Part shown: positions 15,836-61,253 of the stretch, in pieces | Position numbering within the stretch: the stretch's first letter is position 1 | How the letters are laid out: each line of letters begins with the position of its first letter | Assembly (NCBI GenBank): GCA_023898365.1 | Contig: CP060219.1 | Location: 133,743 to 197,742 of the forward strand | Length of the DNA: 64,000 bases | Reading direction: 5' to 3' | Source: Candidatus Woesearchaeota archaeon | Lineage (GTDB): Archaea; Nanobdellota; Nanobdellia; Woesearchaeales; GCA-023898365 | Made by a program: the position numbers and the translations under genes | Notes under the pieces: model-generated | Databases searched by the model: none | Told to the model about the DNA's origin: nothing | Seen by the model: only the letters and a program-made list of their open reading frames with translations

Positions 15836-16471
15836 ATGATAAAGAGATTTCAGTCAATCTTGAAACGATTCTTGTCACGTTTCCTTCGAAAACACAAGGA
15901 TGTAAAAATAGGACTATATGGTCCGCCAAACGGAGGAAAGACAACGCTTGCCAACAAGATTTGTAAGGATTGGCTTGGCATCGAAATGGGTACTGTCTCA
16001 AACGTAGCCCATGAAACAAGAGAAGTACAGTTCAAAGAAAACGTGATCATCAAGAACAAAAAAGGACAAACTATAAGTTTCTCACTTGTTGACACGCCAG
16101 GCATCGCAACTAAAATCGACTATGAAGATTTCATGAAAACAGGCATGAAAGAAAAAGACGCCAAAACAAGAGCAAAAGAAGCAACAAAAGGCGTTATCGA
16201 CTCCATCAAATGGCTTGATGACATGGACGTTGTTATTGTTGTGCTCGATGCAACTGTTGATCCCTATAACCAAGTTAACATCACCATCATTGGAAATCTT
16301 GAAGCAAGAAAAATTCCCGTTCTTATTGTTGCAAACAAGACTGATTTGAAAAAGGCAAAAATAAAGAAAGTGCAATCTGCATTTCCACAATATAAAGTCG
16401 TGCCTATTAGCGCAAGAAATGGCACACACATCGAAGATATGTACGAAGCAATCTTCGATATAGCGCGATGA
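15836..16471 (+). CDS. Small GTP-binding protein (P-loop GTPase, Era/EngB-like)
   Basis: G1 GPPNGGKTTL, G3 DTPG and G4 ANKTD motifs are present. The protein is 211 aa. Confidence 0.75.
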   Translation: MIKRFQSILKRFLSRFLRKHKDVKIGLYGPPNGGKTTLANKICKDWLGIEMGTVSNVAHETREVQFKENVIIKNKKGQTISFSLVDTPGIATKIDYEDFMKTGMKEKDAKTRAKEATKGVIDSIKWLDDMDVVIVVLDATVDPYNQVNITIIGNLEARKIPVLIVANKTDLKKAKIKKVQSAFPQYKVVPISARNGTHIEDMYEAIFDIAR

Positions 16472-16860
16472 TCATGAAATCAAAAACGTTGACATTACAA
16501 TTCATCCCCTATCAAGAAATAGAGGGACTTTCTAGCGTCAAGCGAGTTGCGAAACTCCTACGCATTGTAAAATCAGATAAAATTGTTCTTCTCGAAGGTA
16601 AATTAAAAAGCCATGAAGAAGCAGACCTTATCAGAAGAACCATGGAAGAAATCGATGCAAAGTTTAAGGGCATCGAGATCTCCGTCATTGACACACTCAC
16701 AAAGAAAGAAGATATGCAGCTCTTTGAAAAACTTCGCAAAGTAGTGCTTGGATTTATTCTTGGCGCTCGCAGCGGTTTTACGATCATTGGACCGGCCACT
16801 ATCGTAAAGGAAATCAGGCAAGATCCTGACAAAATCCAGCTCTTTATGAGCAATAAATAG
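16468..16860 (+). CDS. Conserved archaeal protein, DUF2073-like (GTPase-associated)
   Basis: The 130-aa protein makes a 4-nt overlap with the upstream GTPase gene. Its position and size match the archaeal GTPase-DUF2073-Zn-ribbon triad. The family name is from memory only. Confidence 0.45.
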   Translation: MIMKSKTLTLQFIPYQEIEGLSSVKRVAKLLRIVKSDKIVLLEGKLKSHEEADLIRRTMEEIDAKFKGIEISVIDTLTKKEDMQLFEKLRKVVLGFILGARSGFTIIGPATIVKEIRQDPDKIQLFMSNK

Positions 16861-16867
16861 GTGTTCT

Positions 16868-17269
16868 ATGGCGCATCGCTGTATTAGTTGTGGAAAAATC
16901 TACAAAGATGGGTCAGATGAAATTCTCAAGGGATGTTCTTGTGGAAGCAAACTCTTTTTCTATGTGAAAAATGAAAAAGTAAGTACACCTGAAATCCGCG
17001 AAATCGTTAAGTTAAGCAAAAAAGATCGAGATCAAATTGAACGAGACATCTTTGAAATTATTGGTGTAAACAGAGAAGAAGAGCAACCAGTCGTCTTAGA
17101 TTTGGAATCAATCAAAATCAAACGACCTGGAAAGTACGAACTTGATCTGGTCAACTTATTCAAGAAAAAACACCCTCTTGTTTACAAGCTTGAAGATGGA
17201 AAATACATGATCGACATCATCGAGTCGTTTGAAAAAATGCGCACAAACGATGAAGAAGAGAAATCATGA
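16868..17269 (+). CDS. Zn-ribbon protein (DUF2072-like)
   Basis: The N-terminal C4 ribbon is CISCGK...CSCGSKLF. The C-terminus is acidic. It is the third member of the conserved triad. Confidence 0.5.
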   Translation: MAHRCISCGKIYKDGSDEILKGCSCGSKLFFYVKNEKVSTPEIREIVKLSKKDRDQIERDIFEIIGVNREEEQPVVLDLESIKIKRPGKYELDLVNLFKKKHPLVYKLEDGKYMIDIIESFEKMRTNDEEEKS

Positions 17270-32266: not shown

Positions 32267-33832
32267 TCAATGTTCATTCCTACAATTACTCGAACAACCA
32301 TCACCATCTCTCCAATTGCCATCATCACATTCTTCCGAGTCTTCTCGTATGCCATTACCGCACCATCGCGGCAAGGAAATTGATGAATGAACACAATATA
32401 GCCGATATTCATTTTCACAAGTTTTTTTCTCACCAGTATCAGTCCACTTAAAGTTAGTGCTTGTCGAATCACCTACTATTCCAAGCTGAGAAGATTTGGT
32501 CCAGACATCGCAATTATCTCCAAAGAGAAATCCGTGCCTGAGACCAGTCCACACAAAATCTGAAACTGTATGTCCGTATTCATCATACATGATTGGAAAG
32601 TAAAGATCATAAAGGCCTAAATCTTGAAAACTATCGGCAACAAGGGTTGCGTTTGCACTTTCATTTGCTGAACGGACATAATACTCAACTCCGCTGTCAG
32701 GAATAGCTATATGACTCAACACGCCAACACGAGGCATCGCGCCTAACCAGGCAATCCATGCCCCTTGACCGATTGTTATTCCGTCAGAATTTTTTGCTAA
32801 ATAATTACAAATAGCATCAGCAGCAAGTAGTTCGTTTGCTTCTTCAGGACTATTTATCATGTTCTTTGTGTAGGGATTAATCAAACCAACGGCATAATTT
32901 AAAAACTTCCCTCCTTCATAGATTTGGCTTGTTACAAAAACATTTGAATAATACTTACATTTCGCATTACAATAATCACCACCATTATCAATGCCGTCGT
33001 CGCATTGTTCGCCATATTCTTGCCCGCCTAAAGTCACATTTCCTATTTGAGCATCACCGCAGAAGAGAGGAGAATCAATTCGTACATTGCCACAGGTTGC
33101 GTTGCAGTAATAACAAGCACTGCCATATGGTGGAGGAACGCAGAGTTGACCGTTTCCTGCGCCATCGTCGCATACTTCTCCTGGTTCTGCAAATCCATTT
33201 CCGCAGGACGTGAAGCATTGTGAAATGTCAAGTTGACAATTCGCTGTGCATTGCATCGTCCCTCCTTCATAATATCCTTGCGAGAGGCAAGTTGCGCCTC
33301 CTAAACTTGCACCATCACATTGTTCGCCAGTCTCAATTATGCCATTGCCGCATTCAGCGCCAAGTGCTTGTTCAACTTCTCTTGCGGCAACTTCTGTAAC
33401 GATAGTACCAAGCGCGTCGTATTCTATTCCAGATCCTGAACTTAATAAATAGGTGAAGTTAAGTGTGAGAATTACTGTTGTTCCGGGAGCAAATTCTTTG
33501 TTGAGATCAAATCGTGTTTGACGAGATTCGGAAGGATTAAGAACCAGAGGTGTTGAAAACTCTTGTGTGGCTGATGAAAATTCGAGAATGCGTACACTTG
33601 TTATATTTACCGGACGCGCAACTTCATTTCGAAAGTTTATTGCAAACAAGCCGCTTTCGGTGAGAAGCGCATCTTCACAGGCAAAGGTTGACCCAAGATC
33701 ACAAACCCGTTGCGTAATAACAGTTGGTTCAAATATGGTTGAGGAAAGCAAGAAGCCAACTCCTCCAAGGACTATGAGAAGAGTGAGAGAATAAAAAACA
33801 ATGGTTTCAATTGCCGCAGCACGATGATTCAT
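32267..33832 (-). CDS. Secreted protein with four DUF4215-type Cys-rich repeats
   Basis: The N-terminal TM is LTLLIVLGGVGFLLSSTIF. The repeats CGNGIIETGEQCDG..., CGNGFAEPGEVCDDGAGNG, CGDAQIGN...GEQCDDGIDNGGDYCNAKC and CGNGIREDSEECDDGNWRDGDGCSSNC match the CGNG..E.GE.CDDGN...DGC..C myxo-type disulfide repeat. Confidence 0.55.
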   Translation of the reverse strand: MNHRAAAIETIVFYSLTLLIVLGGVGFLLSSTIFEPTVITQRVCDLGSTFACEDALLTESGLFAINFRNEVARPVNITSVRILEFSSATQEFSTPLVLNPSESRQTRFDLNKEFAPGTTVILTLNFTYLLSSGSGIEYDALGTIVTEVAAREVEQALGAECGNGIIETGEQCDGASLGGATCLSQGYYEGGTMQCTANCQLDISQCFTSCGNGFAEPGEVCDDGAGNGQLCVPPPYGSACYYCNATCGNVRIDSPLFCGDAQIGNVTLGGQEYGEQCDDGIDNGGDYCNAKCKYYSNVFVTSQIYEGGKFLNYAVGLINPYTKNMINSPEEANELLAADAICNYLAKNSDGITIGQGAWIAWLGAMPRVGVLSHIAIPDSGVEYYVRSANESANATLVADSFQDLGLYDLYFPIMYDEYGHTVSDFVWTGLRHGFLFGDNCDVWTKSSQLGIVGDSTSTNFKWTDTGEKKTCENEYRLYCVHSSISLPRWCGNGIREDSEECDDGNWRDGDGCSSNCRNEH

Positions 33833-34368
33833 TTTAGTTTTTTATCCATTTTTTGAGCAACTGCTGCTAGTTTTGCTACGTTTTCTGTAAAGAGCGGCAG
33901 AACTTGCGAGAATACTTTTTCCATAGCTTTCACTTCTGCGCCAACATTCAAAATGTGCTTGTCGTATTCTGCAACTTTTCCAAGAACAGATTCGTTAAGC
34001 ATTTTTACTTGTGCTTGCACGTCGTTGAGCTGTTGCGAAAGTTTGCTTAGCGTGATTTGTGTTTCGTTTTTCCAATCAATTATTTTGTTAATGTCAGCAA
34101 TGACTTCATTCCATTTTTCATCAATGACCGTTTCGACAAGTTCTTCGACCGCAAGATGTTGACGTTTTGGCGAAGATACATGATCTTGTGGCTGGACTTC
34201 TTGACCAAAGGTTGCATCATTTTGTGTATGGGCAGTTTTAATTTCTGCTCGACTTAATGCGTTGAAGATGTCTGATGATGAGTGACCTTCTTTTTGAAGA
34301 ATTTCAATAATTTGTTGCTTTGTCAGGCCTTGCCCTTGCATATCCTGAATTCTTGTAGTTTGAATCAC
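33829..34368 (-). CDS. Coiled-coil protein, 179 aa (hypothetical)
   Basis: It is predicted to be helical with heptad-like repeats. It makes a 4-nt overlap with the upstream coiled-coil gene and with the downstream DUF4215 gene. Confidence 0.45.
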   Translation of the reverse strand: MIQTTRIQDMQGQGLTKQQIIEILQKEGHSSSDIFNALSRAEIKTAHTQNDATFGQEVQPQDHVSSPKRQHLAVEELVETVIDEKWNEVIADINKIIDWKNETQITLSKLSQQLNDVQAQVKMLNESVLGKVAEYDKHILNVGAEVKAMEKVFSQVLPLFTENVAKLAAVAQKMDKKLK

Positions 34369-34745
34369 TTTTTCACCTCTTCAAGCTCTTGTCTTGTTAC
34401 AAAGTTCTGTGGTTGCCAAAGATTAATATATGTTTCTATTTCTTTAAGTTCGGGCTGTCTTGCCAAAAACTTCATTTCTGAGCGTAATAGTGCAAGTTCT
34501 GCTTGCATTTCATGCAGTGTTGACTTTATGGCAAGAAGATCTTCTGAAAGGTCTCTTATTTCTCTCACTGCGTCTTTACTTACTTCTCTGAATCGATCGT
34601 CAGTTATTTGGTTTTTTTTGTGGAGCGTTCCATTTCGTTCTTCAAGAAGCTTGATGCGCGTATTAAGGTGAGTTATTTTTTCAGAATAATCTGTTCCCTC
34701 TTGTTTTTTCCCCTTTTCAGGAGGTGGAAAGAGTTCATTTGCCAT
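34365..34745 (-). CDS. Coiled-coil protein, 126 aa (hypothetical)
   Basis: The sequence is helical and charged, e.g. LLEERNGTLHKKNQ...LHEMQAELALLRSEMKF. Confidence 0.45.
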   Translation of the reverse strand: MANELFPPPEKGKKQEGTDYSEKITHLNTRIKLLEERNGTLHKKNQITDDRFREVSKDAVREIRDLSEDLLAIKSTLHEMQAELALLRSEMKFLARQPELKEIETYINLWQPQNFVTRQELEEVKK

Positions 34746-34888
34746 ACGCTATGCCTTTGCAAGTATCATTTATTAAGCTATTGTTTGTTTAGCTCAATTT
34801 ATTGAGTTGTAAGAAACAAAGAATGTAACCTAAAAATATTAACTTTTCAGTAGTAATATTTATAAACAAGATATGAGTTTCTCTTCCT

Positions 34889-35155
34889 ATGAAAGCACTT
34901 ATCATGCTCCCCATCGTTCTTGGCATCATTCTCACTACAGCAATGAGTTTGCAGGAATTTGCAGAATCTTCAAGTGAGAAAGCAATAGATTTTGCAGATG
35001 ATATGAACAACGCATTTAGCTGCGCGGCGCTAGGAAAATCAATCTTTGAGTGCTCACCAGATCTGAAAACCACAGATTTTACCAATGAAACCATCAAAGC
35101 AAAAGAACTCATTGCAGAACTCGAAGAGAATCTCGACGACGCAAACCAATTCTAA
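34889..35155 (+). CDS. Small secreted acidic protein with two Cys, 88 aa
   Basis: The signal peptide is MKALIMLPIVLGIILTTAMS. The mature part is acidic with a CAALGKSIFEC pair. Confidence 0.4.
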   Translation: MKALIMLPIVLGIILTTAMSLQEFAESSSEKAIDFADDMNNAFSCAALGKSIFECSPDLKTTDFTNETIKAKELIAELEENLDDANQF

Positions 35156-35169
35156 AGTAGTAGTTACGT

Positions 35170-37032
35170 TTATTGCTTTTTAACCTTCTGTTTTAACCGA
35201 GCAATCATGTCTTCGCTTTGTTTAATCCGCTCATAGCGCTGTTGACGAAGAGCATCTTCCTGAGAAGCAAAAGTGGCCTGCGCTGCAACCACCTCTTTTT
35301 TTGCAAGGTCATCAATAGGAGGGGCAGCACCACCACCCGATCTCGAAGAAGAAATGTGAGATTTCAACGCCTTCGTTCGTTCATGCATCTGCTTAAGTGA
35401 TCGCACTTGTTTTCGTTTAGAGGAAGAAAAATAATTTGCAGGAAGCAAATAGACAAGGAGAAACAAAATAACTGATGCAAGACCAACCAATTCAAACCAA
35501 TGAATGGCAAGTAGGGCGATGCGAGACTCGATGATATTTACTAACAAAATTGTGGAACGCACAGAAGACATAGGAACTCCAAAAACACTCGGCAACGTAT
35601 TTAACACATCTTCAGAATCAGTAACATAAGAAGTGATCCACGATTCACCCTGATCGATACGATCAACCACCCAAACACCCTTCTTGGTGAACGGTTGAGA
35701 AATCTCTCTAAATTCAGCAGACTCCGGAATCAACTCTTTAACAACAAGATCTTCCAACGGACTTTCTCCCAAATTCAACAAATTAAGTGTGACGCGAATC
35801 TCATCTTGCGTAATGTACGCGACACTCTTTTGCACGAAGAGTTTTTTCTCAGGAATATATTGGCGAATGAACGGCAATGACGAGCTATACACCCTGTTTT
35901 TCCCATAAACAAATTCTCCAGCAGGGAAAAAATCAACACCTAACGAATCTTCATCAACATATTTGATCGCGTATTCGACCCGTTTTGACTTTCGAGGATT
36001 TAACGACATATCCCACGTAAGTGTTGAACCATCAGCATTCTTTGTTCCTTCGCCCGTATCAATAATTTCAAAACCCGAAGGAATCTCATCAGTGAGTTTT
36101 CCTGAAACAAGAAGCGGATCAAAATTATTCAAAATAAGTTTGACGTCAATAACGTCTCCTGGTAAGACTTGTGTTGAAGAAACAGTTTTTCTTAAAAACA
36201 CATTATTCAAAAGGAAGCTATTAAAGAACACATCTCGTCCAGTCCCATTTACTGAGGCATTCAAACTGTAATTAATCAAATCATCTTCAGTAAAGAGAGA
36301 AATATTGTTTGTTCTATTATACACGAACTGAGAGGCATCAAGAAACACGTCCGCTTGAAGCCAATAAATCTCCCCTTCGACCACTTCTTCATCGAAAAAA
36401 TCCTTCGCGTAAAATTCGCCAGGGCCAATTTGAGTAACCTCTCCTGTAAAATCCCACGATTCGAGTTCACGCGTAATATCCAAATCAGATGTTTTCGTCA
36501 CTTTAAATAAATCAAGTGTTAAATTAAAACTTGTTGGATTCTCAAAATGAACACTGATTAATCTTCTATCACGGCCAGTGATTGCTTCAACTTCTGGTTC
36601 GTTTTTGAGAAGTTGACCGAACACATCAGTGTAGACTTCGGGTTCTTCTTGGAAGATGCCACCTGCAAGAATAGGTTCCCCATCAACAATAGGATTAATC
36701 GACGTAATACCCAAAATATTGTAACTGAGTGAAATTGAGCTTTGCGGTTCAATACTAAAAATTATCAATCCTTGCGACGTCATCAATTGACCTGAAGAAG
36801 TTGCATTAGAGCGAAGTTCAAGACCAAACAAATTATACGGTATGTTAAGATTGTTAAGCGTGACTTCTTCTTGGTTATATATAGTGATTACTCCATCAAC
36901 ATTGACAACATAAAAATCATCGTAGAAACTTGTAATCTTGCCCGATTCGACAATATCAAAGACTATAGTACCTGCCGTTGCAAAAGGAAGGAGAAAAATG
37001 GCAAGAGTGAAAAAAAGAACAAACCATTTCAT
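35170..37032 (-). CDS. Type I membrane protein: large ectodomain, one TM, cytoplasmic coiled-coil tail
   Basis: The signal peptide is MKWFVLFFTLAIFLLPFATA. The TM LVGLASVILFLLVYLL is followed by a ~110-aa K/R/Q-rich helical tail. The gene makes a 4-nt overlap with the upstream gene. Confidence 0.5.
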   Translation of the reverse strand: MKWFVLFFTLAIFLLPFATAGTIVFDIVESGKITSFYDDFYVVNVDGVITIYNQEEVTLNNLNIPYNLFGLELRSNATSSGQLMTSQGLIIFSIEPQSSISLSYNILGITSINPIVDGEPILAGGIFQEEPEVYTDVFGQLLKNEPEVEAITGRDRRLISVHFENPTSFNLTLDLFKVTKTSDLDITRELESWDFTGEVTQIGPGEFYAKDFFDEEVVEGEIYWLQADVFLDASQFVYNRTNNISLFTEDDLINYSLNASVNGTGRDVFFNSFLLNNVFLRKTVSSTQVLPGDVIDVKLILNNFDPLLVSGKLTDEIPSGFEIIDTGEGTKNADGSTLTWDMSLNPRKSKRVEYAIKYVDEDSLGVDFFPAGEFVYGKNRVYSSSLPFIRQYIPEKKLFVQKSVAYITQDEIRVTLNLLNLGESPLEDLVVKELIPESAEFREISQPFTKKGVWVVDRIDQGESWITSYVTDSEDVLNTLPSVFGVPMSSVRSTILLVNIIESRIALLAIHWFELVGLASVILFLLVYLLPANYFSSSKRKQVRSLKQMHERTKALKSHISSSRSGGGAAPPIDDLAKKEVVAAQATFASQEDALRQQRYERIKQSEDMIARLKQKVKKQ

Positions 37033-37739
37033 TCTGCACCCTTCTTTCGAAACGTAAAAACTGTTTTACCTAAGACGAGCACGATAACAATCAACCAAAA
37101 GATGTTTACCGCCCTAATCTTATCGTTTCTAAAGAAGGGAATAATCGAGTATTCAAAACTCAAACGCTCAGTTGGACCCCATTCGAGCAAAGTTGATGAG
37201 CCTTCTGAAGAAACAAGGGCATCAGGGGCGAACGTTACATGATATTTCTTTGGCAAGACAAACGAGGTCGTCTCAACTTTCCGTGGAATGGTAGTGTGCT
37301 CAGCAGGAATATCAATGCCATAGAATAAGATGCCTCGAGGCTTAAAATCTAACCAGTACGTCATAGTCACATCATAATAAAATTGTGGCAAAAGAGGATC
37401 CCAAATGGTAAACACAAGATCGGTAAAATCTGTTCCGGGAACAATCTTAGTATCTAGTCGTTGATCAAATTTGTTTTTTACGACAAATTCTGAGGCGCCA
37501 ATTGATTCTTCACGATCACCACCACTTACTAACTTTGAAAGTTTGAAATGAATCTCACCAGGAATAATAGGATTGTCGCCAACATTCTTGAGGCGAATTT
37601 CTTTTTGTACAAGAATTTTTCCATCTTCTAAAGAGTAAGTGGTTTGATAATTATCAAAAACAACAACTTCAGCAGAAACTTGAGATAGAGTGATAAGTAG
37701 GGAGAATAACAAAACCAGTAACGTAATTGATGTTCTCAC
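37029..37739 (-). CDS. Surface protein with signal peptide and C-terminal TM anchor, 236 aa
   Basis: The signal peptide is MRTSITLLVLLFSLLITLSQVSA. The C-terminal TM IFWLIVIVLVLG is followed by RKKGAE. Confidence 0.5.
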   Translation of the reverse strand: MRTSITLLVLLFSLLITLSQVSAEVVVFDNYQTTYSLEDGKILVQKEIRLKNVGDNPIIPGEIHFKLSKLVSGGDREESIGASEFVVKNKFDQRLDTKIVPGTDFTDLVFTIWDPLLPQFYYDVTMTYWLDFKPRGILFYGIDIPAEHTTIPRKVETTSFVLPKKYHVTFAPDALVSSEGSSTLLEWGPTERLSFEYSIIPFFRNDKIRAVNIFWLIVIVLVLGKTVFTFRKKGAE

Positions 37740-37794
37740 GGAACTTTACACCCCCAAAGTTGAAAAAATGAAAATAAAAAAAAATTGGAAGAAC

Positions 37795-39639
37795 CTATTT
37801 GTACTTCCTTAGCTTATGATTGATCTGCCTAGTCATCAACACGTTTGCTACATTGATCGCGATCAAAAACACCACGAGGCCAACATAGAACAATTCTCTT
37901 GTTCGCGTGCCAAGGACCGATCTCATCAAAATAGCTTCCGAACCACCAGCTCCATCAACTTTACGAGGGTCCAATCCTACAATGTAAAGTTCAGACGCAC
38001 GATAGTCACCGGATCCGTTTACCCAGTAACTCACATTCCAAGTCCTGTTATTGTATGACTCACTGATTGGACCAAGAGATGAGTTGTAAGGATTCTTCAA
38101 TGGAATATTCCATTGATGAGTCGTACCGTTAAACTCGGTGTTGGTAACGTTGGCGGACGCGTCTGGCGTTCTACTATACGTATAGTTGAATGGCGTGAAT
38201 TCTGAAGGCACGAAGTCGTAGACCGTGACCACTAAGTGTTGTGGCGTCCAGTCATTTCCAATGTTTTCAACTAAGATGTCAATGCGATATTGATCTTCGT
38301 ATGTTGAAACAACATCCTTATGCACTTCAAGCCAGTAGCCATTTACCACGTAGATGTACTTCATATAATAATCGTTGCCATTTCTCGTATATGTCGAGTT
38401 TAAAATTTGATTATAGGCGTTGATTATGTTGAAGTAAGGCAACATCCACACAACAGGTGGTGGAGAAGTTACCGGATCACTTCCGTCGGTAAAGTTAAAT
38501 TCCCATGCAGTGCTTAAGTAACCTGTTGACAAGTTGATTTCTTGATTTGGATACACCGTTGAGTTGAGTAATCCAAAGTCAGTCGTTCGGTTCGTCATAT
38601 TAAGCGTTGTTGTAACCCACATAGATAATTTTGTCAAGCGGTAAGCAATGTTAATTGGCGTGGTAACATTAGACCGCGCTTCCCACGTCACATTTGTATT
38701 GTTCTCATTATCTGCAGGCTGCACAATTCTTTTTGTTAAGTGATCATGTGCTTGCGCAGAAGCAATAACTGAATCTAAAGAGAGGTTAGATGCTAAATAG
38801 GAAATATTGTATCTAAGCGTCTCAGTGATTGCCTTGTACGTATCTGACGTTGGAACATTGTTTGGCGCAGTCACATTGTACTGAATCCAGACAGTTTCGC
38901 CAGGAACTAAGGTTCCTGCACTCGCTTGCCAATACCAACTCGTGTTACTTGTTCCATTCCCGTGGAGATTAGCAAAATCTCCAAGCTCGTAGAGTTCGTC
39001 AAGAGAGAACAAACTGTTTGTTCCATTCCATAAAATACCATTAACTTGGATAGAAATATTAATATCATTTACATTCTGGCCGACAGCTAAAACGTTGCTT
39101 GCTGATTGATTAACTTGCCAAGTGTGACCAGCAAGAACCTTCCTGTTAAATCCATGTTCGACATTTCCATAAGAAGTGTTAATATCTAATGGTGGTTGAA
39201 CTGAACCACAAGACATATTATAGTTAAACGTTGAAAAATTTCCTGCTCGAAGTTGAGGAATATGAACTTGAAAGACATCTCCTGGAGCAGAACCAAGAGT
39301 TTGCGAACCGTATCTTCCTGCAATGAGTGTGAAATTCGTACTCATTGTGTCCGTGTTCGAGAAGTTAATATAGATATCATCTACCGTGTCCGGACTTGGA
39401 TTAGTCACGTTGAGAATTCCAATGATCTCACATGTTGTCGTTGATTCCGTTAAATAAAAATTTTCTGCGTAGGTAACATTCTGATTGACTGTTTCAACCA
39501 ATGAAATGTTAATCCTTGTCGGAAGCGCTGAAGCCACCGACATAAATAGCAATCCTAACACTAAGAGAAAAATAGCTCGTCTCACCTTGGTCACCTTTGT
39601 ATATCTTTGAAAACGAATAGTTTCATGCGAGCAACACAC
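37795..39639 (-). CDS. Large N-glycosylation-sequon-rich surface protein with C-terminal TM anchor, 614 aa
   Basis: The protein has a signal peptide. More than 40 NxT/S sequons are present. The C-terminal TM LFYVGLVVFLIAINVANVLM is followed by a basic tail. Confidence 0.55.
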   Translation of the reverse strand: MCCSHETIRFQRYTKVTKVRRAIFLLVLGLLFMSVASALPTRINISLVETVNQNVTYAENFYLTESTTTCEIIGILNVTNPSPDTVDDIYINFSNTDTMSTNFTLIAGRYGSQTLGSAPGDVFQVHIPQLRAGNFSTFNYNMSCGSVQPPLDINTSYGNVEHGFNRKVLAGHTWQVNQSASNVLAVGQNVNDINISIQVNGILWNGTNSLFSLDELYELGDFANLHGNGTSNTSWYWQASAGTLVPGETVWIQYNVTAPNNVPTSDTYKAITETLRYNISYLASNLSLDSVIASAQAHDHLTKRIVQPADNENNTNVTWEARSNVTTPINIAYRLTKLSMWVTTTLNMTNRTTDFGLLNSTVYPNQEINLSTGYLSTAWEFNFTDGSDPVTSPPPVVWMLPYFNIINAYNQILNSTYTRNGNDYYMKYIYVVNGYWLEVHKDVVSTYEDQYRIDILVENIGNDWTPQHLVVTVYDFVPSEFTPFNYTYSRTPDASANVTNTEFNGTTHQWNIPLKNPYNSSLGPISESYNNRTWNVSYWVNGSGDYRASELYIVGLDPRKVDGAGGSEAILMRSVLGTRTRELFYVGLVVFLIAINVANVLMTRQINHKLRKYK

Positions 39640-39870
39640 CCTTGAAACCCACAGAGCTAAAAACCGAAGTTTTCATATATAAATGTTTCGAAAAAATGTC
39701 TGTTAGAATAGAAAAATCTGACATTTTTTGTTAGCACGTTTGAAGAGTAACGAAAAACTATGTAAAAAAATATTCAACAAAAACTTCTGCTTGAGAACAG
39801 TCACTAACATCACGTTCTATGACTGCATCTATAGCAAGACTTATAAAGTGGATTTATCCAAAATAGGTTC

Positions 39871-40800
39871 ATGGTTCATAGGAAACCAGCTGGTCCAAAA
39901 GGACTTGGGCTAGTTGTTATACTTTTCACGCTCTTCTTCTTAGTGGCAGTAATCCCTTTCACAACAAGCATTAGCGTTAATCCACAAGAAACAATAATTG
40001 AGCGGATTGACCAAGAAAATATCATTCGCATCAGCATCATCAATAATGATGTTGAAGTCCAAAACATTCAACTGCAAACGAGTCAAGAATCAAAGTATCT
40101 TGACAGACATTTTTCTATCAACCCAACATTATTCGGTCTTTCACCTGGCGAAACAAAAGTTATTGAAGTGCAACCAACAGACTTACTTTCTGTAACACCC
40201 GAAAAACATCATTTTTCCTTATTAGTAATCAGTGTTGACGAAGAAAATCAAGAGCAAACAATTAGTGGCGCAATCACCATTTATTTTACCAAAGAAGGAG
40301 ATCAACAACCTTCTCTTCATTTTGACAAACTTACCGTGGTGAGTTCTTCACCAGAAGAAATTGTTTACAGTGTAGATCTTCTTAACAATGGCAACATAAA
40401 TGATTGGATTAAGCCACGCGTTTCTTTATTTGACGAATCAAGAAATGAGGTGTTCTCTACAACGTATAAAAAACCATTTCTTCTTGAACCAAGCCAATCA
40501 ACGACTTTGACTCTCCCTCAGCAATTTAGTAGATTAGAAAGAGGAACCTATACACTTCGTGTTCAGATGATTTACAACGAAAATCTCTCCTCGCCGCTTC
40601 GAGAAGCGCAAATTACTATTAACCAAGAACGTGCAAGGACAACAGAAGGAAACGATTACTCAATCCCTCTGGTCATCTCTCTAGGTGTGCTCGGACTCTT
40701 AGGATTCATCTTGTATCGATACCGAGAATACATAAAAATCAAAGAAGAGCTTGAAAAAAAGCACAGCAACAAAGAAGGAACAAACACGAAGAAAAAATGA
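39871..40800 (+). CDS. Surface protein with N-terminal signal/anchor and C-terminal TM plus Lys-rich tail, 309 aa
   Basis: The N-terminus is RKPAGPKGLGLVVILFTLFFLVAVIPF. The C-terminal TM IPLVISLGVLGLLGFILY is followed by a KKHSNKEGTNTKKK tail. Confidence 0.5.
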   Translation: MVHRKPAGPKGLGLVVILFTLFFLVAVIPFTTSISVNPQETIIERIDQENIIRISIINNDVEVQNIQLQTSQESKYLDRHFSINPTLFGLSPGETKVIEVQPTDLLSVTPEKHHFSLLVISVDEENQEQTISGAITIYFTKEGDQQPSLHFDKLTVVSSSPEEIVYSVDLLNNGNINDWIKPRVSLFDESRNEVFSTTYKKPFLLEPSQSTTLTLPQQFSRLERGTYTLRVQMIYNENLSSPLREAQITINQERARTTEGNDYSIPLVISLGVLGLLGFILYRYREYIKIKEELEKKHSNKEGTNTKKK

Positions 40801-42188
40801 AACGCGTAATTATTTTCATTTCTGTTGCGATAGTGATTTCGCTTATCTTCCTCTTTCCAAAACAAAGTGATGGATGCGATTGCGCAGGATCATTACTCTC
40901 AAAAGAAACCTTATGTCTTGGCATTCCTCTTTGTCAGGAAACGATTGTGGCGGCTCCAGAAAAAGAACCAACAGCTATTGATCAAACAACCAGTATTCCA
41001 AACAGTAGCAATACGACTTCCGTACTGCAGAACTCCACTATCAGTAATACCACAAATCAAAATCAGTCGCAAGCTGTTGAGCTAGTCACTGAGAACCCTG
41101 TTTCCACTTCATCCAACACAAGTTCAAATGAATCACTGGTGTGTTCCGCTGATTGCGCAACAATTCGTGAACTGCTCAAAGCAACAGAGCTTGGCACGTA
41201 CGAACAATTTTCAAATTACACGTATAGTAACAATGAGCGAGAAGCAATTGTGCTTGCCATCGACACGTCTGAAAGCATGCAGCGTAGAATCGGACATGCA
41301 AAAGAAGCAGCAAAACAACTTATCGATCTCATCGGCTATGAAGATAGCGTTCTCATTCTCTCATTTGATCAAGAAACAAAAATTTCGTATGGGTTTACGA
41401 ACGACAAAACAGTGCTCAAGAGCCAAATCGATGCATTGACGGTAGGTCTTGGCACTGACGGGTATGAGTTATTTAGAAAAACAAATCTTGTCTTAAACAC
41501 ATTTGACGCGCCAGTAAAAAAACTCATCGTTATTACTGATGGTATTTTTTGGGATGATGGCACAAACCAAACTGCAATTGAAGCTGCACAAGCCACGTAC
41601 TGCATAAATATTATTACTCAAGGTGTTGATATCCTCAAGGATAAAAACAAAGAAAAGCGGATCAAGAATCTAGTAAATGCATGTGGCAGTTATTATTACA
41701 GCCCAGAAACCCCTGAAGAATTGTTTACTCTTATGAATTTGATTTATCACGAAATTGAAGAAGGGTCAAACGAGTTATCCCTTCGCATCAAACTATCACA
41801 TGACCTGGTTGCAAAAAATGAAAATGTAACCATTTCTAGTCTTGCATTCTCCTCATACACAGGCATGGTCTTGCCGTTTTCAAACGACGCATACTGTATT
41901 GAAGCGCCCATTATTACTCTAAATACAAAGGAGTTGTCGACGAAAGGGAGCTGGCAAGAACTATCAACCAACGATCTTATTCCAGGAGAAAACATTCTTG
42001 TTTTACATGCCAAGATCCCCGGATGCAATATTGTAGGTTCAAAAGAATTTGAAGTTATCGTACAGCGAAACAAAGATTATGATTTCCTCACCGTTCTATT
42101 CATTCTCCTTCTGGTTGGGAGCAGCAGTTATTTCTTTATCAAACCAAAACATGTTCGCGCAGTTAAGTTGTTCTTCGGGTTTAAATAA
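40797..42188 (+). CDS. von Willebrand factor A (vWA) domain surface protein with MIDAS motif, 463 aa
   Basis: The protein has a signal peptide and an S/T/N-rich linker. The segment AIVLAIDTSESMQRRIGHAKEAAKQLIDLIG...VLILSFDQET contains a DxSxS MIDAS motif. A C-terminal TM is present. The gene makes a 4-nt overlap with the upstream gene. Confidence 0.65.
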   Translation: MKRVIIFISVAIVISLIFLFPKQSDGCDCAGSLLSKETLCLGIPLCQETIVAAPEKEPTAIDQTTSIPNSSNTTSVLQNSTISNTTNQNQSQAVELVTENPVSTSSNTSSNESLVCSADCATIRELLKATELGTYEQFSNYTYSNNEREAIVLAIDTSESMQRRIGHAKEAAKQLIDLIGYEDSVLILSFDQETKISYGFTNDKTVLKSQIDALTVGLGTDGYELFRKTNLVLNTFDAPVKKLIVITDGIFWDDGTNQTAIEAAQATYCINIITQGVDILKDKNKEKRIKNLVNACGSYYYSPETPEELFTLMNLIYHEIEEGSNELSLRIKLSHDLVAKNENVTISSLAFSSYTGMVLPFSNDAYCIEAPIITLNTKELSTKGSWQELSTNDLIPGENILVLHAKIPGCNIVGSKEFEVIVQRNKDYDFLTVLFILLLVGSSSYFFIKPKHVRAVKLFFGFK

Positions 42189-42379
42189 AAGCAATAAACA
42201 GTCTTTCATAAGAGGAAGCGAACTCTCGCAGTGCTCGTTTTTTCACAAAGAATCATTCTCTTACCAAACAAAAAGCTAATTGCGCAAAAGATAGGAAAAT
42301 CATCAAAAGAAAAACACATGAAGAGATAAACACGTGAAGAACTTAAAAAAAACACTATTAAAAAAATATACGATCGCTC

Positions 42380-43753
42380 TTAACTCATTTTTACTGGCCA
42401 GACATACTCCAATTCCTGATTGATCGCTTCAGGAGCAGTAACAACCACTTCTTCAGTTGTGCCTGTTCTTGGAATAAGTCGAATATCAAATGATTCGCCG
42501 CCTTCAATCGAAGAAGGTAAACGGAAATGTATTTTGATGACGTCATCTTCATGAACTGAACCAAGTGAATAATCAGGTCCACGTTTTGCATAGGTTACTG
42601 CGAACGTTCCTTGACCCACAGAAGGAGGTGAAACTGTAAACGTGTCGCCCGCATCAATAGTACGCTTAGCAGTCGTCAGACCATACGTTTCTAAATAACC
42701 TGCAGGATCACCAGCAAGCGTAGTAAAAGACGTCCTTGACTTGTCAAAGGTTGCACCAATCGAAGAAATATCTCCTCCTAAAGGAACGGCGACACCTTCT
42801 GTTGAGTTATATTGCACAGAAACATTTCCATCCGATGAGAAGAAAAAGATAGCGTGCGACTCATTCAAACCCATCCACTCATACTCTTGATCGTTATCAT
42901 GATCATTAGCTAAATAGTAAGGATTCCTAAATAGATGCACTTGATTTGCGTTAATGCCGTTCGAGTTGTTGTTTTTTCCAAAAATAGAAATTAGCCCATA
43001 TCCGGATATGTTTGTTAAAAAGTTTCCAAACTGACCCCCGCCAGAACCGATAAGTCGAACGCCACCAGATGCATTAACAGGCCTCACGTACTGAATTCCT
43101 GCACTGGAGACATTGATCATGAGCCATCTTGTTCTCGAAGCTTGACCAAAGCAAGGATTCGTGGCAAGATTTCCAACATCACTTCGACAAGATCTCGCAG
43201 TTTCATTGATGCCATCGCCGTCAATATCCACATTCAGATTGACAAAGGCAAAAAATCCAATTTGCACTTTATTTGTCCCATAAAAAGGAGCATGAAGTTC
43301 ATCAAATTCTTGATCAGAATAAATAGTATACCCCGTAAATGAGTACGCAGCCTCAGCATCAACACCAGCATATTGATAGGAAGATGACGCATCGCTTGCA
43401 CCCGCCAGAATAGTGAGTTGACTTAGTGACATAATATCAGAACCAGGAGTTAAGTGAGCTACAACTTGGACATCTTCCAAATAACTGTCCGTACCATCAG
43501 TAGCAGTAATTTCGGTAACCAGTAAGTGCGAAGCAACATTTGAGTTCACAGAATTTCCCGCTTGGATGGTAGTTTCTTGAAACGACCCACTCGTTCGAAT
43601 TATAACTAATGAAACAAATCCAGCAATAATTATCATAGACAAGACGACAAGCACTAATCCGAGACCAGCAACAGCTCGCTTTCCAACCATTGGACTACAC
43701 CCCACGATAATTCGTAAGTTGCACAATTTATAAAACTTCTCATTTAAGGACAT
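42380..43753 (-). CDS. Archaeal type IV pilin/archaellin-like protein with class III-type signal (probable start at the Met of MVGKRAVAG, about 43690)
   Basis: The N-terminus MVGKRAVAGLGLVLVVLSMIIIAGFVSLVII closely parallels archaellin/pilin prepeptides (…[20 protein letters not shown]…). A DIDGDGINE Ca-binding-like motif follows. The remainder is beta-rich. Confidence 0.5.
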   Translation of the reverse strand: MSLNEKFYKLCNLRIIVGCSPMVGKRAVAGLGLVLVVLSMIIIAGFVSLVIIRTSGSFQETTIQAGNSVNSNVASHLLVTEITATDGTDSYLEDVQVVAHLTPGSDIMSLSQLTILAGASDASSSYQYAGVDAEAAYSFTGYTIYSDQEFDELHAPFYGTNKVQIGFFAFVNLNVDIDGDGINETARSCRSDVGNLATNPCFGQASRTRWLMINVSSAGIQYVRPVNASGGVRLIGSGGGQFGNFLTNISGYGLISIFGKNNNSNGINANQVHLFRNPYYLANDHDNDQEYEWMGLNESHAIFFFSSDGNVSVQYNSTEGVAVPLGGDISSIGATFDKSRTSFTTLAGDPAGYLETYGLTTAKRTIDAGDTFTVSPPSVGQGTFAVTYAKRGPDYSLGSVHEDDVIKIHFRLPSSIEGGESFDIRLIPRTGTTEEVVVTAPEAINQELEYVWPVKMS

Positions 43754-43818
43754 GCTGGCAAGTTGAAGAAATAGTAAAAAACAAAACTATATAAAACAAA
43801 GTTTTTGTGCTTTAACCA

Positions 43819-44274
43819 ATGAAAATAAGCAAAGAAGTCATAAACAAAGCCGTTGGTGTCAAAGAGAGCTCCTGGCTAATTTCAGAACTCGAACTCTATG
43901 ACATTGATGGTGAAACAGAAGAAGAACTTCGTACGCAAGTTATTGAACACATTATTGAATATCTCGAAGATGTAAGCAAAATAGTAGTAGAAGTTGCCCA
44001 TCCTGAAAACATCACTTCGATGGAAGAAAGCGCTTGTTTTGCTGAAGAAGATATGCAAGAAGTAGACCTTCTGTTTAGAGACGTACATTATTTGCTGCGA
44101 AAGGCACAACGCATAAGGTACCTTCAAAATAAAGAGGAACTTTCTTCCTATCTTCTTGAATTTGAAACGAATTGGAAAGAACATAAAAAAACGTTCATAA
44201 CAATGCTTTCAAAACTCGAGAACTGCTGGAAAGAAAAAAAATCCATGCAAAAAACGGGTGCGTATTTTATATGA
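43819..44274 (+). CDS. Hypothetical acidic cytoplasmic protein, 151 aa, co-transcribed with adk
   Basis: It makes a 4-nt ATGA overlap with adk. No motif was recognised. Confidence 0.4.
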   Translation: MKISKEVINKAVGVKESSWLISELELYDIDGETEEELRTQVIEHIIEYLEDVSKIVVEVAHPENITSMEESACFAEEDMQEVDLLFRDVHYLLRKAQRIRYLQNKEELSSYLLEFETNWKEHKKTFITMLSKLENCWKEKKSMQKTGAYFI

Positions 44275-44804
44275 ACATCATCATTTTTGGGAAACAAGGA
44301 TGTGGCAAAGGAACACAGGCAGCCAAACTTGCGCAAAAATTTGGCATCCCCGCAGTTTCTGTTGGCAACCGACTGCGAGAACTCGTCGCTTCTGGAAGTG
44401 AATTGGGTTTGAAGTTAAAGTCGTACATGGACAAAGGAGAACTCGTTCCTTTTGAAATCAACGTTGCCATTGTTAAGGAACTTATTGATACGCATCCGCA
44501 AGGCATGATTCTAGATGGATTTCCAAGAAATAAAGAACAAGCAGCGTGGCTTGCAAAAGAATGGCAGGTTGACGTCGTTATCGAATTAGAGATATCAGAC
44601 GAAGAAGCTATACGAAGAATTCTTGAACGAGCAGCGATTGAACATCGAAGCGATGACACCCCTGAAGTCATTCAAAAGCGCCTTGACATCTATCATCATG
44701 AAACCGAGCCTCTAAAACATTTACTTTCTGCAAAAAAAATAATAATCATTGATGGTTCTGGCAGCATTGAAGCAGTATTTGAACAAATTTGCAAGAAACT
44801 CTAA
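44271..44804 (+). CDS. adk: Adenylate kinase, short type without zinc LID
   Basis: The P-loop GKQGCGKGTQ, the NMP-binding DGFPRN motif and RSDD are present. The protein is 177 aa. Confidence 0.85.
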   Translation: MNIIIFGKQGCGKGTQAAKLAQKFGIPAVSVGNRLRELVASGSELGLKLKSYMDKGELVPFEINVAIVKELIDTHPQGMILDGFPRNKEQAAWLAKEWQVDVVIELEISDEEAIRRILERAAIEHRSDDTPEVIQKRLDIYHHETEPLKHLLSAKKIIIIDGSGSIEAVFEQICKKL

Positions 44805-59546: not shown

Positions 59547-61253
59547 ATGGTTGCGCCAAGAGAGACTATGAAAAAAACCCAGATAGTGTTCATTATCATC
59601 CTCGGGTGCTGTATGATAAGTTCCTTCGCCAGTTCTTGCAATGAAAACATGACAGGATGTTTTGACGTAGAACTAACACTCCACCAAACAGAACCAGTAC
59701 TTAACACAACATACACGAATTTATTTCGATTGGAAAATTTAGATCATGAACAAGGAGTGGAAGAACAACTACGCATTTTTGTAACCTATAATGTATCATG
59801 GCATAACGAAACGTACAATAATTCATTTCTCAAGACAATCAACTCCTATTCAACGACCGGAACAGGAACGTTTACGTTTTCTGCAAACACAAGCCATCTT
59901 CTCTGCGGCGAAATCAGAAACATTTCACAAAACGGAGAGCAGATTAGTGATCCCCACCCGGAAAATAATGTTCTTTGCACCGCAATTGTTTTCGATAACA
60001 CCAGTAATGCAACGGTCAACGAAACAGGTAACGCAACAAACGAGTCTGAAGAAGGAGTTTGCAATCAATCAGTACGTTTCCTCGTTTTGCAGGCGCTAAG
60101 CAATCACAGTTTTCAATTTAAACCAATAATTTCTGCAGAACAACATTGGACGCTCACCTATTGGATAGAAGATCTTGATGGTGTCATATTCAAACAACCT
60201 ATGAACACAACAAACACGAACTGGAAATCATTTACTCCCAGCTCAAGTGTTACGGGAGAAAAAATATTCAGGCTTTACGGACGTCTCAACACAACGTGTG
60301 CACAAACAGAAAACTCAACGTTTCTTTTGCTCAAAAGAGCGCAAGAAGAAAATGAAGAATCATCAGAAAGTGAATGCGTAGAAGATGAAGAAGAACAACA
60401 AGAATCAGCATTGTCATTTACCGCATTACCTGAGGAAATAATTGCAGGATCGACAATTTCGATAAAAGTCAAGGCATACCGAGGAAATACGCTCAAAAGG
60501 AAAGTGACGTTGAGAGGTCCTGGCAATCAAATGAGTTTTTTGATTAACGACAAATATGCTGAAACAGAAGTGACCATTCCCTTCACTATTGAGAAGAGTT
60601 GTTCACTCGAAGAAGGACCAGTTGATTTTATCCTTTCAGGTCTTGACGAAGAAAAAATTATTACCGCGCAGCTTTTCAGACCAACTCAAGATGAGTGCCA
60701 ACCAGCAGAAACGAATGCGACTACCAGCTCACCAAGTCAAAATAGCATTGCAAGTTTTTATACGCGAAAGAAAAAATATGCGCCGCACATAAATTTTTCC
60801 TATCGTCTTGAGCAAGAGTCAAACGACAGCTCAATACTACTTATCATTCCACATCTCCTTCTCAATACAACGACAAATGTGCCTGCTAAGCCAGGCAACA
60901 ACACCGTTTTTTTTCTGCTTAAAGAAGGAGAAGACATAATTGATTTTTTTGAATATCAGTATTTTCTTGAAGATGATTCGCTTAGTCTTGGCGAAAGTGA
61001 AGATCAAAAAGAATCCGAATCCGACTCGTCGAACAACACTCAACGTGAAGACAGTGATCGTTCTCCGCTTACTGGTTTAACCATTTCAGTTCCAAAGAAT
61101 GAGGGGAAGAAAGTAATCGCAATTAGTGTTTTAATCATGCTCGGCATAGCAACATTCGCTGTTGCGCTCATCAAACGAAAGAACATTATTTACGCGGTAC
61201 AACATAGTAGCTTTTATCTTCATAAGAAGAATTCAAAGGATGGAAAGGGTTGA
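59547..61253 (+). CDS. N-glycosylation-sequon-rich surface protein with signal peptide and C-terminal TM anchor, 568 aa
   Basis: The signal peptide is MKKTQIVFIIILGCCMISSFASS. Many NxT/S sequons and acidic stretches are present. The C-terminal TM AISVLIMLGIATFAVALI is followed by KRKN. Confidence 0.55.
   Translation: MVAPRETMKKTQIVFIIILGCCMISSFASSCNENMTGCFDVELTLHQTEPVLNTTYTNLFRLENLDHEQGVEEQLRIFVTYNVSWHNETYNNSFLKTINSYSTTGTGTFTFSANTSHLLCGEIRNISQNGEQISDPHPENNVLCTAIVFDNTSNATVNETGNATNESEEGVCNQSVRFLVLQALSNHSFQFKPIISAEQHWTLTYWIEDLDGVIFKQPMNTTNTNWKSFTPSSSVTGEKIFRLYGRLNTTCAQTENSTFLLLKRAQEENEESSESECVEDEEEQQESALSFTALPEEIIAGSTISIKVKAYRGNTLKRKVTLRGPGNQMSFLINDKYAETEVTIPFTIEKSCSLEEGPVDFILSGLDEEKIITAQLFRPTQDECQPAETNATTSSPSQNSIASFYTRKKKYAPHINFSYRLEQESNDSSILLIIPHLLLNTTTNVPAKPGNNTVFFLLKEGEDIIDFFEYQYFLEDDSLSLGESEDQKESESDSSNNTQREDSDRSPLTGLTISVPKNEGKKVIAISVLIMLGIATFAVALIKRKNIIYAVQHSSFYLHKKNSKDGKG

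Follow-up and report, generated by a model that had tools for sequence, protein, structure and literature searches.

The 64,000-nucleotide stretch of contig CP060219.1 from a Candidatus Woesearchaeota archaeon analysed here (the window; all positions refer to it) raises the question of whether a large protein with a pilin-like N-terminus, encoded beside genes for membrane-anchored surface proteins, is a pilin, an archaellin or neither, and whether it would serve swimming or attachment. The Woesearchaeota, an abundant group of archaea with small genomes, have not been cultured and are thought to live in dependence on other cells. As judged from sequence comparison and a predicted fold, the protein, 436 residues long, is an archaellin of the ArlB/FlaB family whose core is split by an insertion, and not a generic pilin. 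As to its use, we lean modestly towards the following explanation: a long-form archaellin with a class III signal, paralogous to the swimming-filament subunit, would be polymerised by the ArlHIJ proteins of the genome, add an extra outer layer to the filament, and be used together with the neighbouring surface proteins.

A large archaellin with a split core

The maximal open reading frame (ORF) at the locus covers positions 42380-43753 on the (-) strand in the ORF list of the window and has 457 codons. The original prediction described this frame, which is real, and placed the true N-terminus at an internal MVGKR, which stands; the product hence has 436 residues and not 457. Its gene (42380..43690, -) is H6502_01070, and the protein is 100% identical to USN45705.1 of NCBI, whose annotated start is the same MVGKR (ATG at 43690). 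The alignment of homologs also begins there. In NCBI the entry is named 'MAG: hypothetical protein' (MAG, metagenome-assembled genome) and belongs to the 1,131,583-bp contig of a Candidatus Woesearchaeota archaeon (a 1.13-Mb MAG). The in-frame 5' extension of the maximal ORF (43691..43753, -) is probably a leader or promoter region rather than coding sequence. Within it lie a TTTTATAAA box at 43735-43727, shortly 5' of the ATG, and, between the two candidate starts, a Shine-Dalgarno-like element GGGGTG at 43703-43698, which would fit the promoter and the ribosome-binding site of the 436-residue product, respectively.

All possible starts of every ORF of at least 60 residues in the window were searched with a FlaFind-type regular expression, [KR][GA]↓[hydrophobic] with a subsequent run of over 20 uncharged residues (↓ marks the cleavage site). 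This class III rule was satisfied by only 2 ORFs in the 64 kb, one of them being the protein studied here (MVGKRA↓VAGLGLVLVV...). The signal peptide MVGKRA (43673..43690, -) would be cleaved past Ala6 (KRA↓VAG). It aligns with the K[KR][AG]↓EMG[VI]G leader of 29 homologs and of 118 archaellins from the loci described below, and the glycine at +3 (G9) is at least 90% conserved across archaellin homologs. The hydrophobic N-terminal alpha-helix of the mature protein spans residues 7-53 (43532..43672, -); in an AlphaFold2 (AF2) model it comprises 44 residues (10-53) and is followed by beta structure. Using phmmer, the residues of this helix align one-to-one with the helices of the archaellins 5o4u, 5z1l and 7ofq. 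The leader recognised in the original prediction, a short basic stretch followed by a long hydrophobic helix, is in agreement with the FlaFind-type rule, and the phmmer, Pfam and Foldseek results sharpen it to the leader of an archaellin.

The phmmer search aligned residues 3-119 with 7 solved archaellins, the best matches being P. furiosus FlaB0 (5o4u, E 8e-7) and M. maripaludis FlaB1 (5z1l, E 1.1e-6); the matches to 5o4u, 5z1l, 7ofq, 8rh5 and 9eq7 span E 8e-7 to 9e-3. A precomputed Pfam annotation assigns Arch_flagellin (PF01917) to the 436-residue protein. Its AF2 model, built on 29 homologs (pLDDT 82.7, pTM 0.71), was then compared with the PDB using Foldseek. The top 17 matches were all archaellum filaments, with a TM(target) of 0.52-0.84 and alignments of about 430 columns reaching both ends of the query; they came from Oxiplasma, Methanocaldococcus, Sulfolobus, Methanococcus, Saccharolobus, Pyrococcus, Halobacterium, a Chloroflexota archaellum, Methanospirillum and Aeropyrum. 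The C-terminal strand is kept and ends in VWP where the family has (L/V)YP. Of the attributes of an archaellin we found the leader, the N-terminal helix with the first strands, the beta-sandwich and, in the genome, the assembly machinery; the curated score threshold of the family was not reached, a point taken up below.

We considered whether the protein could instead be an adhesion pilin of the type IV class, belonging to a pilus distinct from the archaellum (Aap-, Ups- or Epd-like), with its own ATPase and platform protein encoded elsewhere, and regard this as very improbable. Scans of the 436-residue protein with Pfam and NCBIfam returned neither Pilin_N/DUF1628 nor any other pilin family, and no type IV pilin or pilus subunit was present among the significant Foldseek matches in the PDB. 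Neither a pilin family nor a pilin fold prevailing over the archaellin fold was therefore found: all sequence and fold matches are archaellins, and among the closest relatives are archaellins whose genes come immediately after arlJ. A pilin would account for the class III leader, and it would also suit the second class-III-like protein of the window, encoded 9 kb off (32267-33832), the homologs of whose two upstream genes adjoin a T2SSE ATPase elsewhere.

That second protein deserves a description in its own right. It has 521 residues (32267-33832, -), begins with MNHRA↓AAIETIVFYSLTLLIVLGG and carries C-terminal DUF4215 Cys-rich repeats (26 Cys). It is preceded by two small coiled-coil ORFs of 126 and 179 residues (region 32267-34745, -), whose homologs in loci L067 and L051 adjoin a T2SSE-type ATPase of 735-772 residues that is absent from the window. 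The region may be what is left of a second type IV filament system, or an accessory to one.

Nested size classes and the outer domain

Word-indexed homolog searches gave just 2 and 9 relatives. An exhaustive search of 1.84 billion representatives recovered 314 relatives at E<=1e-3. Of the 150 listed, dozens are full-length proteins (400-450 residues), and identity to these was 21-31%. Many archaellins of about 200 and about 300 residues matched in two pieces. A hidden Markov model profile of the long forms was used to compare three classes, namely S (about 200 residues), M (about 300 residues) and L (about 430 residues). The S-type archaellins match positions 2-123 and 345-419 of the L profile, and the M-type archaellins match positions 1-135 and 255-419. 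By this profile comparison the classes are nested: S corresponds to the core, M to the core plus module 2, and L to the core plus modules 1 and 2. Among the 118 archaellin genes from the loci, the motif D-x-[DN]-x-[DN]-G-x-x-[DENST] occurs in 0, 1 and 2 copies in S, M and L, respectively, with few exceptions. Modules 1 (about 135-255) and 2 (about 256-348) match each other (hhalign probability 97.1%, E 5.8e-11); they are thus homologous, indicating that the long form arose via internal duplication.

In the window protein the two modules (residues ~135-255 and ~256-348) form an outer domain of about 220 residues (~120-348; 42647..43333, -), which sits within the archaellin beta-sandwich. Its first acidic loop, DIDGDGINE (DxDxDGxxE, residues 155-163; 43202..43228, -), is a putative Ca2+ site and is followed by Cys168 and Cys180; the second, DHDNDQEYE (residues 263-271; 42878..42904, -), is a copy in which the glycine is replaced by glutamine. 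The Ca-binding-like motif DIDGDGINE pointed out in the original prediction is well conserved, D155, D157 and D159 being invariant, together with C168, C180 and D267, across 29 long forms. D263, D265 and D271 are at least 90% conserved in the long-form family. All family-invariant residues, including P355, G361 and G410, are present in the window protein. DxDxDG loops are classic Ca2+ ligands (EF-hand-like and FG-GAP-type loops), and from the motif the acidic loops likely bind Ca2+. All 8 N-x-S/T sequons of the protein lie between residues 162 and 295, inside the insertion; this is the placement expected of an exposed glycosylated layer, and the domain may well be glycosylated.

We also examined whether DIDGDGINE could be the canonical metal site of archaellins, which in M. 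jannaschii FlaB1 reads D-x-D-x-S...N..D (PMC6500986). This candidate was rejected: we could not map the site, and the Woesearchaeota archaellins of about 200 residues are without DxDxDG. The loops were therefore treated as features of the inserted modules.

The model of the outer domain (residues 120-348, pLDDT 84.3) gave no significant fold match in the PDB, the best hits being scattered beta-propeller proteins at E 0.09. This result would accord with a different kind of protein, a non-filament surface protein held by its pilin-like helix (cleaved or not), as proposed for bindosome binding proteins, and exposing a Ca2+-dependent binding domain. Surface proteins that build no filament can likewise carry class III signals (bioRxiv 10.64898/2026.04.22.720090), and the weak matches to the outer domain are propeller-blade-like; the N-terminal helix is moreover divergent, as detailed below. 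We nevertheless judge such a protein quite improbable, given that the whole archaellin beta-sandwich is kept, including the C-terminal strand. This core makes the subunit contacts of archaella, and it is intact throughout the nested S/M/L series.

The distribution of these archaellins was analysed by scanning GTDB species genomes with a 9-sequence subset of the long-form alignment as query, which yielded 79 loci. Their titles read Woesearchaeota, Nanobdellota or Nanoarchaeia, the exceptions being third-party annotation (TPA) MAGs labelled 'uncultured Methanosarcinales archaeon' and one MAG labelled 'archaeon'. The archaellin loci, arl operons and surface-protein sets of L007, L008, L010, L012, L013, L015 and other TPA 'binchicken'/SRP MAG loci match those of Woesearchaeota/Nanobdellota MAGs, and the 'Methanosarcinales' label on these TPA MAGs is probably a placeholder or an error. 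Archaellin paralogs can be dispersed within a single genome, as in the five loci of one 1.84-Mb chromosome and the four of the 782-kb HK-STAS-Nano-5 contig. A scan of metagenome contigs returned mostly unrelated archaellins, with no new long-form loci among the matches listed.

Three other gene families were noticed at these loci. A two-transmembrane protein of 70-110 residues ending in LIRIYEQH, without Pfam match, is encoded directly 3' of S- or M-type archaellin genes in 15 loci (e.g. L003:10886-11104, L016, L029, L035, L044, L068, L083) and never beside long-form ones. Giant ORFs (about 3,170-3,230 residues where complete) flank the long-form archaellins of L008, L009, L010, L011 and L059, those of L010 and L059 running off the end of the locus. 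Finally, an ORF of 2,226 residues (L030:2892-9572) was clustered with the archaellins by BLAST.

Assembly machinery in the genome and a conserved gene neighbourhood

Forty-seven of the window's larger ORFs were scanned with Pfam and NCBIfam; setting aside antisense ORFs and shadows overlapping a longer ORF, they include almost all ORFs of at least 120 residues. None matched ArlH, ArlI or ArlJ, another T2SSE or T2SSF protein or Peptidase_A24, and tblastn of the genome's own machinery proteins against the window gave nothing at E<=1. The original prediction was thus right that the window holds no assembly ATPase or platform gene, and right again in supposing that the machinery is encoded elsewhere. 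Using a profile of other Woesearchaeota ArlI proteins, we identified the ArlI of the same genome as USN46017.1 (P0207), recovered at 64% identity and located on the same 1,131,583-bp contig as USN45705.1, 312 accessions away. Logan contigs from the same sequencing project that carry an identical ArlI show the operon order: translin, archaellin, FlaC-domain protein, helix-turn-helix protein, ArlF/G, ArlH, ArlI, ArlJ. Type IV filament machinery, whose absence from the genome had been named in advance as fatal to the prediction, is hence present as ArlF/G-H-I-J. The archaellin of the operon has 305 residues and is of M type, with one DLDGDG loop. In at least 8 loci of other Woesearchaeota the canonical ArlF/G-ArlH-ArlI-ArlJ genes are followed by S- or M-type archaellins, and an L-type locus and an arl operon are found in one assembly in DSBS01, RFJB01 and CAZPJY01.

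Facing the long archaellin gene is an operon of two genes. The first encodes a 309-residue protein (39871..40800, +; the w309 family) and the second a 463-residue vWA protein (40797..42188, +). A spacer of 191 bp (42189..42379) separates the stop of the vWA gene from that of the archaellin gene. The pairing had been described as divergent; it is convergent, the (+) operon ending at 42188 and the (-) gene at 42380. The vWA protein combines a Sec-type signal or anchor with a linker rich in Cys and in S/T/N, a single vWA domain and a transmembrane (TM) segment at the C-terminus. The vWA domain with an intact DxSxS metal ion-dependent adhesion site (MIDAS) that had been predicted is well supported, VWA_2 (E 6e-10, 40.1 bits, cutoff 27) and VWA (E 8e-9, 36.3 bits, cutoff 23.8) both scoring above their cutoffs. 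The MIDAS residues D156-x-S158-x-S160, T220 and D248 are all present and are conserved in the homologs of L002, L059 and L071, which have two vWA domains each.

The 309-residue protein is anchored, as had been proposed: its ectodomain, rich in beta structure, lies between a Sec-type signal peptide and a C-terminal TM segment, which is followed by a short tail of charged residues. Pfam gave weak, sub-threshold Ig/E-set hints only (PapD_N, MSP and Cep192, E 0.01-0.2), and a profile of the w309 family retrieved nothing meaningful from the PDB sequences. With hints of that level, an identification as a PapD-like chaperone was considered unsupported.

Divergent from this operon lies a set of three (-) strand genes. 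The first encodes T614, an anchored glycoprotein-like protein of 614 residues (37795..39639) with 32 N-x-S/T sequons; no Pfam match was obtained locally and no meaningful PDB sequence match was found. Its orthologs in L002, L003, L015 and L076 are 43-53% identical and carry a precomputed PF27408 AF2028_C assignment, and the term AF2028 returned antibody catalogue numbers only in the open-access literature. The second gene encodes the anchored T236 (236 residues, 37029..37739), whose orthologs are 43-50% identical and always placed between T614 and T620. The third, T620 (620 residues, 35170..37032), is an anchored protein with DUF11/CLIPPER repeats (DUF11, E 3.5e-7) and a cytoplasmic coiled-coil tail; its orthologs are 29-39% identical and keep the same order in several loci. 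All these neighbours have Sec-type signals, C-terminal TM anchors and cytoplasmic tails, and their Sec-type N-termini and C-terminal anchors rule them out as minor pilins.

ORFs were called in all loci and clustered with BLAST, and the neighbours within 5 kb of 16 L-type and of 89 S- and M-type archaellin genes were counted and compared by a Fisher test, the p-values of which are indicative only, the loci not being phylogenetically independent. Homologs of w309 are found near 8/16 L-type and 1/89 S- and M-type genes (p 3.8e-7), vWA homologs near 4/16 and 0/89 (p 3.8e-4), and T614, as part of the T614-T236-T620 set, near 4/16 and 1/89 (p 0.0017). The reverse holds for arlI, with 0/16 and 14/89. 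Locus L002, whose archaellin is 24% identical to that of the window, has the full window order: adenylate kinase, small ORF, archaellin, vWA, w309, T614, T236, T620. The w309 gene (and the vWA gene) is co-directional with the archaellin gene in L059, L009, L011 and L015 and convergent with it in the window, L002, L071 and L076. The association thus persists through rearrangement, which argues for a functional tie. The link between the archaellin and the 309-residue and vWA proteins made in the original prediction is in this sense above chance, recurring in other Woesearchaeota genomes in varying orders. Partial synteny was also observed between L067 and positions 32267-44804 of the window (coiled-coil pair ... 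archaellin - adenylate kinase). At the place taken in the window and L002 by the long form with the surface-protein genes, L067 has an archaellin of 199 residues. It is a hint that an archaellin site already present in an ancestor was where the long form and its island took shape.

A linkage to vWA and w309 that is significant and tolerant of rearrangement, together with the separation of the long forms from arlHIJ (0/16), could also be read as the mark of a separate, non-rotating adhesive filament, comparable to Iho670 in Ignicoccus, which would be built by ArlI/J or other type IV machinery and have vWA and w309 as attachment partners. We hold this to be possible but doubtful. Speaking for it are also the N-terminal helix of the window protein, which is unlike that of the operon archaellin, the weak structural match to Iho670 itself (5kyh, Foldseek probability 0.69, E 0.027), and the proposal that DPANN archaellins may serve host attachment (PMC11606122). 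The subunits of motile archaella are, however, far better structural matches than Iho670. Most L-type archaellins elsewhere share their N-terminal helix with the S/M paralogs of the same genome, as expected of shared filaments. As for the supposed partners, vWA occurs at only 4 of the 16 L-type loci, and both vWA and w309, being Sec-type and membrane-anchored rather than pilin-like, cannot be tip subunits.

Returning to the explanation that we modestly favour, a long-form subunit polymerised by the ArlHIJ proteins, the mechanism could run as follows. The class III signal (MVGKRA↓VAG...) would be removed at the membrane by a prepilin/prearchaellin peptidase, and the hydrophobic N-terminal helix would be fed into the filament by the ArlH-ArlI-ArlJ complex. 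There the helix would pack in the core while the archaellin beta-sandwich would make up the usual surface layer. The insertion of about 220 residues would project outward as an extra layer, probably glycosylated, with its duplicated modules, acidic loops likely holding Ca2+, and one conserved disulfide. Such a layer might alter the filament surface, whether in stiffness, in sheath-like decoration or in binding. Encoded apart from the arl operon and beside Sec-exported anchored proteins, the subunit would probably be co-regulated and co-used with them, the likeliest setting being contact with surfaces or partner cells; a filament for swimming may in this way have become adapted to adhesion as well. 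We infer both the incorporation into a filament and the adhesive role. The anchored neighbours, including the MIDAS protein, make a role in surface or partner-cell contact plausible, in keeping with suggestions in the literature (PMC11606122); host attachment is unproven. A stronger version of the contact role, in which an L-archaellin shaft together with w309, vWA and T614-T236-T620 would constitute a dedicated contact organelle, that is a system for attaching to partner or host cells in a Ca2+-dependent manner, seems to us unlikely, and we offer it tentatively.

Besides the non-independence of the loci, several observations weigh against the favoured explanation. The archaellin family scores lie under their curated cutoffs, both for Pfam Arch_flagellin PF01917 (E 9e-6, 26.5 bits, cutoff 29.5) and for the NCBIfam flagellin PRK08541 (E 1.6e-11, 44.5 bits, cutoff 210), which we attribute to the insertion that splits the archaellin domain. 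The prepilin peptidase was not located, the scanned ORFs of the window giving no A24 match and the retrieved loci no GxGD[VAILM][KR] motif; FlaK is reported in Woesearchaeota generally (PMC8407392). Being convergent, the archaellin gene and the vWA operon do not share a transcript in the window. The second acidic loop of the window protein (DHDNDQEYE) is degenerate. Lastly, the N-terminal helix is far from the family consensus GVGTLIIFIAMLLVAAVAAGVLIQT and far from that of the 305-residue operon archaellin of the same genome; tblastn of the latter against the window gave nothing at E<=1. A helix so divergent renders it less certain that the protein co-polymerises with the operon archaellin and speaks for a filament of its own or a specialised position, whereas the consensus helix kept by most other long forms favours co-assembly.

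The divergent helix and the degenerate second loop, together with the 21-31% identity to the full-length relatives listed, might suggest a decaying or functionless paralog. We give this very little credence. The frame of 436 residues is intact, every invariant residue of the family is present and the model is confident; the promoter-like box and the Shine-Dalgarno-like element are also in place.

Three further features of the window lie outside this gene set. A 731-residue protein (1368-3563, -) matches S_layer_C (E 1e-12) and is likely an S-layer protein, separate from T614, T236 and T620. A 906-residue protein (61186-63906, -) gives weak matches to penicillin-binding protein 1A/1C transglycosylase/transpeptidase families (E 1e-10 to 5e-9, far under cutoffs), which is unexpected in an archaeon. 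The OapB and OapC genes are adjacent at 16468-17269 (+), and a replication origin may be nearby.

Comparison with known systems

In the open-access literature we found no description of the S/M/L series, of the module duplication or of the linkage between long forms and surface proteins. What emerges is a graded archaellin series (core, plus one module, plus two modules) whose largest form is annotated as hypothetical and is kept by surface proteins rather than by motor genes. The locus supplies concrete candidates for filament-surface specialisation or attachment. Archaellin genes rank among the most highly expressed genes of Woesearchaeota in situ (PMC11606122), and free cells of Nanobdella are motile via archaella (PMC11104419). 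Should the long form do no more than decorate a filament for swimming, the result is a useful annotation without surprise; if the contact-organelle reading is true, it would provide a molecular handle on how uncultured DPANN archaea engage other cells.

The canonical archaellins ArlB/FlaB (5z1l, 5o4u and the M. villosus ArlB1/B2 7ofq) have the same class III leader, N-terminal helix and beta-sandwich as the window protein, whose genome likewise carries ArlF/G-H-I-J. The window protein differs from them in being about twice as large, in its two-module insertion, in its position outside the arl operon and in scoring under the curated cutoffs. Archaellins enlarged by a surface subdomain are known from Sulfolobus and Saccharolobus (ArlB, about 290-300 residues; 8qx4, E 6e-7, and 8cwm, E 9e-6) and are good fold matches; the added subdomain, tightly fused, gives rise to ridges (PMC13357602), and no DxDxDG repeats were noted in it. 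The Iho670 protein of Ignicoccus hospitalis (5kyh) is archaellin-like and forms adhesive, non-motile filaments, but is small and without outer domain.

Closest in architecture are the archaellins of about 450 residues of Haloarcula marismortui, which build sheathed functional archaella, large archaellins coexisting with canonical ones in several archaeal groups (PMC13357602). The Har. marismortui ArlA2 and ArlB (about 454 and 463 residues; 9v95/9v96) are of similar size, combine a core with an outer domain and have smaller archaellins in the same genome. This likeness is, on the sequence evidence, one of architecture and not of homology: phmmer aligns 9v95 with residues 5-115 only (E 0.43), and 9v95 and 9v96 were outside the Foldseek results. 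In haloarchaea D2 is a bilobal double beta-sandwich; the Woesearchaeota outer domain is made of two duplicated DxDxDG modules, and the Woesearchaeota long-form genes, unlike those of Haloarcula, are linked to anchored surface proteins. The finding of sheathed archaella in haloarchaea (PMC13357602) would thereby extend to another phylum, in which the outer domain is unrelated.

More distant parallels exist in bacteria. In bacterial flagellins the filament core is conserved and the outer domains vary; type IV pili have vWA adhesins (PilY1/PilC) and, in Streptococcus sanguinis, modular pilins. With the flagellins the archaellin shares the concept of an outer layer but no homology. In comparison with PilY1/PilC and the S. 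sanguinis pilins, the vWA domain is here carried by a separate membrane-anchored protein and not by a filament subunit.

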